This document shows, piece by piece, positions 57,101-63,100 of a stretch of 64,000 nucleotides of DNA (its first letter is position 1; the number at the start of each line of letters is the position of its first letter). The position numbers were made by a program. This DNA is from Escherichia coli (GTDB lineage: Bacteria; Pseudomonadota; Gammaproteobacteria; Enterobacterales; Enterobacteriaceae), in assembly GCF_045037415.1 (NCBI RefSeq), contig NZ_CP173438.1; one strand, given 5' to 3'.

Positions 57101-60100
57101 ATGGGAACCATACAGAAGATAAGAACAGATGTTAATGTATTATATGCGGCCATTCACCGTATTGAGTGGTTGTTTGAGACATTTTCATCTGTTTGTTTGT
57201 CTTTTTCTGGAGGAAAAGACTCTACTGTGCTGCTCCATCTTACGGCCGATGTGGCTCGCAGGAAGAAACGTCGTTTCTCTGTATTATTCATTGACTGGGA
57301 AGCTCAGTACCAGTGCACAATTGCACACATTCTGAAGATGAGGGAGATGTATCGGGATGTGACGGAGACTTTTTACTGGGTGGCACTCCCCCTGACTACG
57401 GTAAACGGTGTCTCTCAGTTTCAGCCGGAATGGATATGCTGGGAACCAGGTGTGGAGTGGGTTCGTCAGCCACCAGATGACGCTATTACAGATATGTCGT
57501 ATTTCCCATTTTATCGGTATGCCATGACGTTTGAAGAATTTGTTCCGGCATTTTCTTCCTGGTTTGCCGGTAACCGGTGTGGAGTGGCAATACTGACTGG
57601 TGTTCGTGCTGATGAATCGCTCAATCGCTTTATGGGACTGGTGTCTCAGCGCAAACTGAGATATGCAGATGATAAACCCTGGACCACAGCGTCACCTGAA
57701 GGGTTTTATTACACCTTGTATCCGTTGTATGACTGGAAAGCCCGTGATATATGGATATATAACGCCAGAACCCGAGCTATCTACAATCCCCTGTATGACC
57801 TGATGTACCGTGCCGGCGTGCCGTTACGCAACATGCGGGTCTGTGAGCCTTTTGGCCCGGAACAGCGTAAGGGACTGTGGCTTTACCATGTTCTGGAGCC
57901 GGAAACTTGGGCCAGGATGTGTGAGCGGGTGTCGGGTGCTGCCAGCGGGGCGCTTTATGCCAATGAGAGCGGTGCCTATTTTGCCCTGCGTAAGCGTATC
58001 ACGAAGCCACCTCATCATACCTGGCGTAGCTATGCGATGTTCCTGCTGGATGTGATGCCGGAAAGAACGGCAGAACATTACCGTAATAAAATTGCTGTCT
58101 ACCTGCGCTGGTATCAGACGCGGGGCTTCCCGGATGACATCCCGGATGAACAGGAGAATGACCTGGGGAGCCGGGATATCCCGTCTTGGCGACGTATCTG
58201 TAAGACACTCATAAAGAATGATTTCTGGTGCCGGACCCTCTCCTTCAGTCCGAACAAACCCCGGCACTATGAACGTTATCTGCAGCGTATGAAAGAAAGG
58301 AGGAAGGAATGGGGGATTCTGTGACACCTGAGGTGGAAGTATTGAGCAACATGATTCGACAGTACTTCAGTCAGGAACGATCTGAAGAAGAGACCATACG
58401 AGCCCTTAATCATCTGCGCAGGGTGTTGCATGAGGTCAGCCCTTTTGCACAGGAGCCTGTGGACTGTGTGTTGTGGGTGAAAGCGGATGAGGTGGTGGCC
58501 AACGATTACAATCCCAATGTCATGTCTTCCAGTGAAAAAAAACTGCTTAAACATTCACTGGAGCAGGATGGATTCACGCAGCCTGTGGTGGTTTCGGAAG
58601 AGAAGGAGCATTATCTGGTCGTGGATGGTTTTCATCGTCAGTTGCTGGGCAGGAAAGCGGATACGAGAAAACGTCTGAAGGGTTGGCTGCCAGTGACCTG
58701 TATTAATCCGGAAAGAAAGGGACAGGCATCACGTATTGCCGCAACCATACGGCATAACCGTGCCAGGGGAAAACACCAGATAACGTCAATGTCTGACATT
58801 GTCAGGGACCTTTCGCGTCTGGGCTGGACAGATGAGCGTATTGGCACAGAGTTGGGCATGGACCAGGATGAAGTGCTGAGGCTGAAACAGATTAGCGGGC
58901 TGACAGAGCTGTTTCAGGAAGAGAATTTCAGCCCTTCATGGACGGTTCGTTGATATTGTAAAATATGATAGTTGGAGTAAGGGGCAATAGAAGGAGAATA
59001 TTTATCCCACCTTCTTCCGAGTCGGGATAAATCAAAAGGTATTATCCATTGATTCAGTATCTGGGTGAGAGTAAATAATCTAAAAATAGTATTGCGTTGT
59101 GAACTGATATCACTTTTGAATTACAAAGGTATAGGCTCAGTAACCAGCTTTATAAGTCATTGTCGTAGCAATGACTATAGAGTCATGCTGGCGGGAAGAA
59201 TAAATATTCACCCCCAGATGGAAAACAACGTCGAAAAACCTTCAACAAACACAATACGTTCGTTAGCCTGCCCGCAAAGCGGGCAGATCAGGACAAAGAA
59301 TTCCATAACGATTGTTTTTGTCATCAGAAATTCCATACAAAACCTATAGCTGCATTAAAACCTGCTGCAGGAATAGTTTCATGTGCTGTACGGTAGCGTT
59401 TGTCTGTCAGGTTATTGAGTGCTAGGTTAATCCGGTACTGATCCTCGTTACCGAATTCTGTATTTACTGCAAAGTTGAGAGTGGCCCAGCCCGGAACATT
59501 TGTTTCGGTACCGTTACTGTCATCTTTTGCACTAGAGGCAGCACGAATAAAAACATCAGAGATTATGTTGGCCTGACCCATCACAAGAGTATGTTTCAGC
59601 CCTATACGTCCGTTTATCGCTGGTTCTCCTGTATTAGTTGTTTTTAATGTTGAAGTTTCATATTGCCGACGAATTAAATTGCCACTGATATATGGCGAGA
59701 AAACCCAGCCATTATATTCCGCGCTTATTTCCAGTCCCCATGTTTTTGCCCGATCAATATTGTCATAATAATAGTAGCTACTACGGGAGGAGTTGGTGTT
59801 ACCATTGCAAACTATACTGCCATCACAGATCAGACTTGCAATATAATCTTTAGCTTCTGAGTAGTAAACTGCGCTGTCAATCAGCCACTGATTACCATTA
59901 TATCGTGCACCTAATTCAAAGTTATTGGAGTGTTCAGCCTTAAGATCAGGATTTCCGTATGTGACACTGCCGCCCGCAGATGTCTGCATAAAAAGCTGGG
60001 AGAGTGTGGGAAATACGTAGCCTTGCGCGAACGCAGCGCGTAACTCCAAGTTATCGAAACCTGAATAGCGCAGGCTTGTAGATGTTACCATTTCGTGATC

Positions 60101-63100
60101 ACTCGCAGACTCTCTGGCAAGAGAGGTATCGCTTATAATGCCTGCGGTATATGATACTCCGTCACCACGCGTCAACTTTGAAGAAAGCCAGTATTGGCGA
60201 ACTCCCATTGTCCATGTCCAGTGATCGGCGAATCGCCAGTCATTTTGTGCGAATAGTGAGACTGTACTTTGCTCTGACTCATAATAGGAGCGAGTTCGTG
60301 TTTCCTTATTAATGAAGCCGGTCAGAGATTTGCTTGAGGTCATGCCACCGGACCTTTGGCTGACCCTGTCTTGTTTGTACTGTGCACCGGTAACAAGTTC
60401 ATTATTAGCAGGCAGCGAAAAGTGACTCTGCAATGTGACCGCCTGAGTGTATTGCTTATCATGGGTGTCAGTCTTGTTATGAACGGTCAGAGCCTGAATC
60501 ATCGGACTGGGAACAGGCTGTGTCGTTTTTACTTCGTTGGCAAATTGGCGCTGGATGGTCTGCTCATACGCGTCGAAATGAATTTTTTTTAGATAGTCAC
60601 CGTCCACGTCTGTGTCATAGAATACCCCAACTTTCTCTCGTTCAAGTTTAGGTATTTTGACACTAAATGCCTCATAGCTTCCGTCTGGATCCTCATAGTA
60701 AGTTTGCGTCGCGAGTCTGTAGCGATCAAGCGAGAGGCCAAAACGATGGTTTCCGGAGTTATAACCCAACCATACACCCTGACTATTGTTACGATAGTTG
60801 GTATTCGGCAGACGTCCATCCGGCGTATCACGATTGCCCTGATCAGAATAACTACCGTTGATGCGATAATCAAATCCACCGATGCTCCCCTGGACCGCGA
60901 TTGATTCTTCCCAGCCTGCTGTTGCGGAATTATAAACAGCTTTCACAACTCCAGATGCAAGTTTGTCACCTCCCTTTTTGGTTATGAAGTTAACAATACC
61001 GCCAATTGCCTGTGAACCGTACAGTACGGAATATGGACCTTTCACTACCTCAACACGCTCCAGCGCAGACTCATCTATCAACAGTCCCACACCATAATTA
61101 TCTCCGGCGCGCTGATAAGTTACCTCCTGACCATCAATGAGAATTAAAACACGGGAGGATGCTTCGCCACGAATGCGGATTTGTTTACGGCCTGCCAAGG
61201 AGTTGTCTGTTATCTCTACTCCGGGGATGTCCTGCAAATTATCGGCTATGGAGGCATTGGTGGAGTTCTGCAATGTTTGTTGGTCAATAACCTGTATAGT
61301 CGCCGGGCTTTCCCAAAGGTTGCTTGCCGAACGATTCGTGGTCACGACGAGCGTCTCTTCGTTGCTGATTTTTGTTTCTGAAGAAGTTGCGGTTGCAGTA
61401 GAAACTATCCCAGAAATGCATAATGACAGAGTGGAAAGGATATAAATTCGACAAGGTATATTATATAACATTTCATCCCTCATTAATACAAAGTACAAAT
61501 GATTGCTGTAATGATAATTATTATCATTTATGTTCTCATGTATCTGTGATTATTGTCATCTTCATAAATTGTAAATATCAAACATTTTTGACCTTAATCA
61601 TGTTTTTTGATAGATATTTTACGACTGAACATATCCGTCGTTTCCTCTGACTCGTGTCAGTCGGTCTCTGGTTGTATCCACGGACCGTACTCTTGACATA
61701 AGAGTGCGGTCCGTGGAAAACGGAGTTGAAAAAATGGTGTCTGAAAGAAGGTACCATCATTGCGATGACAAACACTTTGGCGTGGATAATGTAATTAATT
61801 GCTGAAATTGACCGTATATGCGGTAAGACTCATATCAGTATCAGGTCCGGTTAATTGCTGATACTGACATAAACTTTTTACAAAAGGATGAATGCAGAAG
61901 GTTACTCTAATGGCCAGAGTGATGACAATGATGGTCAGACGTTGACCTGCAGAAACTGCATTTTAATTGGTCTATAAAGTCTGCAAGAGGAATCAGGGTC
62001 AGATCAGTGAGTCTTATCGCGGCCCGAAGCTATGACTGAAAGAAGGCTGGATACAGAATTGCAACAATTTGGCAATGTCAGAACACAGAAGCTTTGCAAG
62101 CAGGTGAAAGGTTATGTCTAGAAAAAGGAGTATATCAGAATACATCTACTGATGTACAAAACACAACAATAGCTTCATGATATATAAATACGTGATGACG
62201 AGTTGTACTCCGCATGGTTATTTAACTTCTCAGCACCACTAATGATCCTGAGCAACTTCGTATTTGGGCCATTGCCATGGAGTAGAAAGCTGTGTCTGAG
62301 AATGCAGAATTTGAGAAAAGAATTCGCTTTCTTGGAGAGCTTCTGAAAATGGCACGCTAACAACGCTTTGTTAAAAAATGTGAATCACTTGCCGAGGCTG
62401 CATTTTCTATTCGAGGAGAATGTTGACGTAGATATTACAGAAATCTCAGCGCATCAGGATAAACTGCTACCTTAGGTCAACCACCAAAAGAAAATACAAT
62501 ACGTCCAGTTTGTATGCCTTTAATAACACATCTTTTAAATGTTGAAGAATTATCCCGCCTGCTGAAGAACGTTGCTCTGAGTGTGATAAACCTTTTTATT
62601 CTTGATGATGTCAGCGAGAAGATGGAATATATCCCCGACTGGGTCGTGGTTACCCGGTTAAACATCTGGTGGCGCTAATAAATCTGGCAAGTCACATTCT
62701 GTTGAATGCTGTGACAGTGCCTTACCGAGAGAGCGAAATTGTGGTGTTCTAGTGCATAGTCGCCACCATTCCGGATAATTTTATTGCGTTGTTTTACAAC
62801 TTCTTTTACAGCGCAGATCTGTCGCTGACGTTGAATCAATAGCCTGGATTTCAGAACACAATGCCCGTTTGCTGGTTGGTCCGGCAGTAGCATTAATTCA
62901 TTATCTGAATGAAATGTGTCAATCCACAGAAACCGCTGTCAATGACGCATTTTGTCGGACGTTAACACGAGAAAGTCTGGCTATTCCGTAATGCCATCTT
63001 ATTTCGTAATGGATTGAGAATGCTGGATTTTTAATTATATTACGCGCAGTATTAATCGCGTAAATGTTTTGCGGTCAGCAACGGTGGGGGATCCATTGCT

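Follow-up and report, generated by a model that had tools for sequence, protein, structure and literature searches.

An intact hma gene beside cobU

The stretch of Escherichia coli DNA analyzed here (64,000 nucleotides of contig NZ_CP173438.1, assembly GCF_045037415.1; called the window below) carries an intact gene for a TonB-dependent outer-membrane receptor, and this gene is hma, which encodes the heme receptor Hma. A mechanical call of open reading frames (ORFs) gives 59324-61498 on the minus strand, with 724 amino acids counted from a TTG. Starting instead from the ATG at 61471 yields 715 amino acids and an exact match to the RefSeq model WP_000966628.1, and a Shine-Dalgarno sequence, GAGGG, read from the sequence on the minus strand at 61477-61481, 5 nt upstream of this ATG, supports the 715-amino-acid start as in RefSeq. 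The coding sequence (CDS) of hma is therefore placed at 59324-61471 on the minus strand, with 715 codons and a TGA stop at 59324-59326. To its right lie ~1.6 kb of pseudogene and insertion sequence (IS) debris, and then cobU (63143-63688, plus strand).

The coding DNA differs at none of 2,148 nt from that of C_RS11765 (WP_000966628.1) in strain CFT073, which lies at 2322324-2324471 of NC_004431.1 and likewise adjoins cobU. A published table of islands (PMC7545054) lists PAI-CFT073-cobU at 2322324..2365760 and names "Hma, Fbp system" as what it carries, and the start of this published island, 2322324, is the first base of the CFT073 receptor CDS. The hma gene is locus c2482 (PMC2736566). The DNA identity to CFT073, the start coordinate of the cobU island and the c2482 designation together make the window gene hma. 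Hma of CFT073 (c2482, on PAI/GI-CFT073-cobU) is encoded behind the same Fur box, and its gene has the same neighbors as in the window, with cobU-cobS-cobT on one side and ibrB/ibrA-like genes on the other. A comparison of 461 nt that include the promoter shows a single substitution, within an upstream palindrome discussed below, and nothing else of substance sets the two loci apart. The window is therefore from a different strain that has this same allele. A 3.2-kb query around hma finds matches in 3,855 of 5,426 complete E. coli genomes, and in 1,357 of the 5,426 at least 80% of the query is matched.

A first-pass annotation of the window had described an intact 715-amino-acid receptor about 40 nt downstream of a perfect 9-1-9 Fur palindrome, had taken it for the intact form of a locus that is a pseudogene in K-12, and had mentioned a heme receptor in an island linked to cobU in ExPEC, the extraintestinal pathogenic strains of E. 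coli. All three points hold up, and the ExPEC island receptor is this same gene, with identical DNA in CFT073. The reading as a heme receptor was right as well, but the existing name and characterization of the gene had not been recognized. As hma is already named and experimentally characterized, and its regulator is known, the window adds no new biology of the gene.

Receptor domains and heme ligands

Hma has both parts of a TonB-dependent transporter, a plug (Pfam PF07715, residues 54-159, 85 bits against a cut-off of 23.9) and a C-terminal barrel (PF00593 TonB_dep_Rec_b-barrel, residues 233-688, 137.8 bits against a cut-off of 27). A signal peptide is predicted for residues 1-28 (...STATA, then TS), and after it the translation contains a TonB box, ETLVVTT, at residues 39-45 (61337-61357, minus strand). 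This box aligns with the N-terminal ETMVVTA and ETMTVTA segments of CirA and ShuA, and its T40, V43 and T44 are invariant in the orthologues. Along with the TonB box, the protein has the aromatic final residue of TonB-dependent transporters (...FVWNF). Alignment to characterized heme and siderophore receptors, the check proposed in the first-pass annotation, comes out on the heme side. The best NCBIfam families are the heme/hemoglobin subfamilies TIGR01785 (TonB-hemin, 228.9 bits) and TIGR01786 (208.8 bits), both matched over their full length, and the sole full-length match to a PDB sequence is the heme receptor PhuR (residues 43-694, E = 2e-22).

Receptors of the ChuA/ShuA/HemR type (PDB 3fhh) resemble Hma in being heme transporters that depend on TonB and are repressed by Fur, and in having a plug, a barrel and both a FRAP-like and an NPNL-like motif, which in Hma read FAQGYVFPTL ... 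NPDL. However, the similarity between the ShuA-type structure and Hma lies mostly in the plug (E = 1.8e-17, residues 39-229), and by the ShuA alignment Hma has neither of the two conserved histidines that serve as heme ligands, at the apex of the plug and in the FRAP-NPNL loop. The plug His of ShuA (..DTGHLNG..) stands opposite Tyr126 of Hma, the codon for which, read from the translation, is at 61094-61096 (minus strand), and the loop-His stretch of ShuA (..SKHFSIG..) stands opposite a gap in Hma between FAQGYVFPTL and NPDL. The genetic setting differs too, since chuA belongs to a complete chu locus and hma stands as an orphan gene. Tyr126, at the plug apex, is invariant in nine orthologues and stands opposite a Tyr in the PhuR alignment. 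PhuR of Pseudomonas aeruginosa (PDB 8the) is the only solved structure that aligns with Hma over its whole length, but the relationship is distant (82 bits), and PhuR comes from another genus and belongs to a phu operon.

Hagan & Mobley 2009 reportedly found Tyr-126 to be the essential residue of Hma. A Tyr in place of the plug His, together with the missing loop His, agrees with a review according to which this outer-membrane receptor for heme requires a Tyr exposed at the surface and not the two His conserved in HemR-type receptors (PMC3832793).

The Fur box and the candidate promoter

Consensus searches place a perfect 9-1-9 palindrome, AATGATAAT-A-ATTATCATT, with the exact 7-1-7 core TGATAATnATTATCA, at 61510-61528, so that its proximal edge is 39 nt from the hma ATG. 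The core motif TGATAATNATTATCA, at 61512-61526, is the only match without a mismatch in the 64 kb, where chance would give 0.18 matches even with two mismatches allowed. The 19-mer Fur consensus GATAATGATAATCATTATC matches at 61507-61525 with three mismatches, and this is the only such match, with 0.02 expected. The promoter region of hma thus contains the Fur-box sequence expected of a member of the Fur regulon. Another core-like sequence, at 50337-50351 and with two mismatches, lies inside a glutamine amidotransferase-like ORF (49868-50626, minus strand) and was judged to be a chance match.

The Fur box is found at the same position upstream of orthologues from five other lineages, and it is the only upstream stretch that E. 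coli hma has in common with the orthologous operons of other genera. A candidate sigma-70 promoter, ATGAGA-17-TATCAT (61511-61539, minus strand), matches its consensus weakly and has its -10 hexamer inside the box. For the corresponding promoter in K-12, that of yoeA, a cluster of 12 Fur sites that overlap within 95 bp has been described as the strongest of the genome (27.4 bits), and this K-12 allele was bound by Fur in gel shifts (PMC2189734). Fur-dependent expression of hma has also been reported in published work.

hma as the first gene of a truncated heme operon

Receptors that are 72-79% identical to Hma over their full length are encoded in Kluyvera, Citrobacter, Serratia and some Salmonella. 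At each of the five orthologous loci examined the receptor gene comes first and is followed by Peripla_BP_2, radical SAM, ChuX_HutX, NAD-binding and FecCD genes, an order that, by the predicted products, corresponds to ChuT-W-X-Y-U, as known from the uptake and breakdown of heme. The operons of Kluyvera, Citrobacter, Serratia and some Salmonella share the invariant Tyr126 and the position of the Fur box, and their receptor stop overlaps the next start in an ATGA, as it does in hma.

What follows this ATGA in E. coli is a remnant, the first ~38 codons (MTKTIVMEFFVLICPLCGQANERIVFVEG...; 59208-59324, minus strand) of a ChuT/HemT-like gene for a periplasmic heme-binding protein. In BLASTP, 12 of 29 of its residues are identical to the Kluyvera Peripla_BP_2 product (E = 8e-6). 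DNA alignment with the five orthologous operons shows that the remnant is closed by a 4-nt deletion, which shifts the frame, and a stop, after which the similarity ends. Linkage to heme genes is thus present at all five orthologous loci and is reduced to the ChuT-like remnant in E. coli. In a metagenomic relative that is 87% identical (locus L018), the ChuT-like gene is cut even earlier than in E. coli. Both E. coli and this relative are without everything past the first ~20-40 ChuT-like codons, whereas the operons of the other genera are complete.

E. coli hma is therefore the orphaned first gene of a truncated chu-like heme operon. This orphan status would explain a dependence of hma on transport genes located elsewhere, and its origin may be a useful point for annotators. 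In Kluyvera cryocrescens (locus L015, 1567-3453), a complete hma-like operon lies directly after an antirestriction-RadC-DUF987-CbeA-CbtA module of the CP4-44/CP4-57 type, which hints that the heme operon travelled with an island of this type.

The decayed allele of K-12

In MG1655 the equivalent of hma is yoeA (b4582), a pseudogene in the annotated "cryptic prophage CP4-44" that adjoins cobU. It is the same gene in the same place, with the same hairpin and Fur-box region and with ~98% identity across the promoter and the initial ~500 nt. It is laid out as a first fragment of 306 nt, IS2F, and a second fragment of 198 nt, after which homology ends and yeeP, isrC and flu come next. The K-12 match is limited to positions 1-1229 of the 3.2-kb query, down to window position 60972. 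Of the receptor gene, ~167 codons are kept, split by IS2F after codon 102 and then joined by a deletion to yeeP/flu. yoeA, the truncated remnant to which the first-pass annotation had pointed, is thus hma destroyed by an IS2 insertion and a deletion.

The Fur box of K-12 differs from that of the window by one single-nucleotide polymorphism (SNP), TGAAAAT against TGATAAT. A promoter described for the K-12 pseudogene yoeH, TTTTCA-18-TATAAT (PMC3946193), corresponds to window positions 61511-61549 on the plus strand, where it overlaps the Fur box on the opposite strand and where the window reads TTATCA-18-TGTGAT. The yoeH promoter exists only through K-12 SNPs, and one of these also breaks the perfect Fur palindrome in K-12.

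Weighing the assignment

We consider it almost certain that the window receptor is hma of uropathogenic and extraintestinal pathogenic E. coli, with a Fur-controlled promoter. The identity of the gene, its domain architecture, the sequence and conservation of its Fur box, its orphan status and its decay in K-12 can all be read from the DNA, and heme binding, the Tyr requirement, virulence, and Fur binding and regulation are taken from papers.

Several observations weigh against this assignment. The scores of the two heme-receptor families are under their curated cut-offs (228.9 against 316.85 bits for TIGR01785, 208.8 against 323.75 bits for TIGR01786), which is why RefSeq names WP_000966628.1 "TonB-dependent receptor plug domain-containing protein"; annotators should be aware that the RefSeq label of Hma is still generic. 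The PDB matches with the lowest E values are to the colicin I receptor CirA, and they cover the plug only (residues 38-174). Promoter-like matches are not enriched in the region, with nine found against 9.4 expected in shuffles, and the hexamers are weak, so that occlusion of the promoter by Fur is something we infer. One preprint finds hma Fur-regulated in W3110 and not in CFT073 and three other named strains, so that two literature reports on Fur control of hma in CFT073 conflict. The biochemistry of Hma, that is, hemin binding and growth on hemin, comes from secondary sources that cite Hagan & Mobley 2009.

The CirA matches raise the alternative that the protein is a catecholate-siderophore or colicin receptor of the CirA/FepA kind, for which heme would not be the physiological ligand. 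CirA (E = 2.7e-29) and FepA are indeed the top PDB sequence matches, the shortfall against the heme-family cut-offs fits this alternative, and in some sources orthologues go by the name "receptor for ferrienterochelin and colicins" or "bifunctional enterobactin receptor/adhesin". Both the CirA and the FepA matches are, however, essentially confined to the generic plug (residues 31-182), and with the equivalog models the protein scores 120 bits for CirA (cut-off 745) and 92 bits for FepA (cut-off 493). The full-length alignment goes to PhuR, the receptor heads a heme-utilization operon at all five orthologous loci examined, and hemin binding and use are reported in the literature. A siderophore or colicin receptor is thus very improbable, and we retain the heme receptor Hma. 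The first-pass annotation had held that placement with colicin or other non-heme receptors and a lack of iron-responsive expression would speak against its reading. Neither was seen, as the orthologues stand in heme operons and both Fur binding and Fur-dependent expression have been published.

A palindrome upstream of the hma promoter

The first-pass annotation had also noted a hairpin with a 15-bp stem at 61678-61712, farther upstream of hma. The hairpin exists, but those dimensions were off. The palindrome spans 61677-61717, and its two 18-nt arms (61677-61694 and 61700-61717) are separated by a 5-nt loop and are 94% complementary, with one mismatch. The 66-nt stretch that contains it folds with -31.8 kcal/mol (z = -7.3) on the minus strand and -39.1 kcal/mol (z = -8.6) on the plus strand, and none of 200 shuffles folds as well. 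The palindrome is perfect in CFT073, MG1655 and ET82, and that of the window has a G-to-A change, with which a G-U pair can still form on the plus strand. An exact or at least 99% identical allele of the palindrome is present in 433 of the 2,760 genomes with a match.

Palindrome copies in these 2,760 genomes occupy a median of one place per genome and a maximum of two, and the median of one rules out a dispersed repeat, whether of the repetitive extragenic palindromic or bacterial interspersed mosaic element (REP/BIME) type or a miniature inverted-repeat transposable element (MITE). An intrinsic terminator was rejected also, since neither strand has a T-run after the stem (ATACAACC on the minus strand, AAAACGGA on the plus strand) and the terminator scan does not include it. 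An Rfam scan of 59000-63200 at E <= 1 gave no match at the hairpin, and a single chance match, to a small nucleolar RNA, over the AT-rich promoter.

The surroundings of the palindrome are different from those of the Fur box. The upstream block shared with the orthologous loci ends near 61575, and the palindrome is absent from these loci. In K-12 it lies at the annotated start of yoeH, its equivalent there being NC_000913.3 2068389-2068429. Farther out, the window segment 61813-62656 is ~70% identical at the nucleotide level to tnpB/tnpC DNA of the IS66 family, which several hundred enterobacterial plasmids carry, and corresponds to the K-12 pseudogenes yoeG and yoeH. A plasmid or IS origin of the hairpin itself was considered and set aside, as the IS66-family similarity stops ~95 nt short of it and no intact element bearing the palindrome was found. 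RefSeq annotates a fragment of an IS4-family transposase at 62651-62839 and a fragment of a cobalamin-biosynthesis gene at 62848-62991. Most likely, the palindrome is not part of the hma unit and belongs to E. coli-specific IS debris by the promoter.

Several strains have lost the palindrome or DNA next to it. In E. coli BCE049, a mastitis isolate (locus L009, ~5000), a deletion of exactly 40 nt between CCGT direct repeats removes the palindrome, and this strain has an identical intact Hma. In strains 2-1 (L005) and 17-07187 (L010), the end of an IS3-family element, TGATCCTACCCACGTAATATGGACAC..., lies in the 3' arm, with the junction at the equivalent of 61684, and everything from this palindrome junction through hma is missing. 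Other genomes that are without hma have their breaks at query positions 332 and 700, beside other IS remnants. The palindrome is in this way a recurrent breakpoint in strains without hma.

We think it probable that the palindrome is a functionless relic of mobile DNA flanking hma, at most a fragile site prone to cruciform formation or slippage, which persists only because the segment as a whole is of recent origin and almost clonal. The palindrome is single-copy and absent at the orthologous loci, and it sits between the hma promoter and the ~850 nt that resemble IS66-family plasmid DNA. The precise CCGT-flanked deletion in BCE049 and the IS3-family end in the 3' arm of two strains without hma are also consistent with a relic. 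Its origin in such DNA is not demonstrated, however, as an intact element with the palindrome was not among the matches, and function could also be what keeps an 18-bp palindrome perfect in most genomes.

The alternative that builds on this last point takes the palindrome for a cis element with a function at the hma locus, possibly an RNA stem-loop at which RNase III cuts or RNA polymerase pauses. In variants of it, the element would insulate the Fur-controlled promoter from transcripts that arise in the IS debris, or would stabilize or process a divergent transcript in the yoeH direction. The fold is very stable, with z of about -7 to -9 and -32 to -39 kcal/mol. Most genomes have it in perfect form, at least 2,211 retain it, and the single substitution in the window preserves a G-U pair on the plus strand. 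The start of yoeH is inside the palindrome in K-12, where the yoeH region is transcribed on both strands and where the RNA in the hma direction is ~150-200 nt long, sensitive to RNase III and terminated by Rho at "iRAP#6850" (PMC6847712). Against such a function, the missing T-run on both strands means that the palindrome is not a canonical intrinsic terminator, it matches no Rfam family, and it lies >150 nt upstream of the Fur box and the likely promoter, beyond the block that the orthologues have in common with it. In BCE049 the deletion takes out just the palindrome and leaves hma intact. Near-identity within a species says little about selection, and an overlap of the palindrome with iRAP#6850 or a transcription start site is unproven. 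We therefore regard a functional cis element as unlikely. Still more doubtful is the fuller version, in which the palindrome would be a working RNase III-sensitive RNA or DNA site tied to the Rho-terminated yoeH transcript, would shield the hma promoter, and, as a fragile site, would favor the IS-mediated loss of hma that commensal lineages show. A relic of flanking mobile DNA remains our preferred account of the palindrome.

Proposed action of Hma and its role in infection

In the account that we favor, Hma is an outer-membrane transporter made of a 22-strand beta-barrel and a plug. It binds hemin at the cell surface, with a plug tyrosine (Tyr126) replacing the histidine pair of receptors of the ChuA/ShuA/HemR type, and brings heme into the periplasm with energy that TonB supplies by way of the N-terminal TonB box. 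Under iron-rich conditions, Fe2+-Fur dimers would occupy the palindrome ~40 nt upstream of the start codon, overlapping the likely -10 hexamer, and would block transcription, and in the iron-poor host this repression would be lifted. With the other genes of the chu-like operon lost, we infer that periplasmic and inner-membrane transport would be provided in trans, for which the literature points to ChuTUV and/or Dpp.

Hma and ChuA are the two heme receptors of uropathogenic E. coli, and Hma contributes to kidney colonization, is a kidney fitness factor and has undergone testing as a vaccine antigen. In mice, the heme acquired through ChuA and Hma plays a part in disease (PMC3832793), and the Kd of Hma for hemin is quoted as 8 uM (PMC11442138). 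Induction of hma was 6.6-fold in infected mice and 14.8-fold in human urine, the gene was carried by 69% of uropathogenic isolates against 17% of fecal isolates, and Hma was a protective vaccine antigen for the kidney (PMC2736566).

Neighboring genes and a second receptor

Convergent with hma, at 57035-58953 on the plus strand, is an overlapping gene pair of the IbrA/IbrB type. The IbrA-like member is a PAPS-reductase/DUF3440 protein of 429 amino acids counted from a TTG, for which RefSeq uses a shorter start and the name phosphoadenosine phosphosulfate reductase. The IbrB-like member is a ParB-N-like protein of 214 amino acids, which RefSeq describes as an "IbrB-like" domain protein.

A second TonB-dependent receptor is encoded at the head of a cluster at 23584-28590 on the plus strand. 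This receptor has 721 amino acids and scores 287 bits, above the cut-off, with TIGR01783, a siderophore-receptor subfamily. The consensus searches gave no strong Fur-box match upstream of it. It is followed by ORFs of 330, 352 and 255 amino acids, of which the 330-amino-acid ORF, the only one scanned, is a weak match to a substrate-binding protein. The cluster is presumably the "Fbp system" listed for PAI-cobU.

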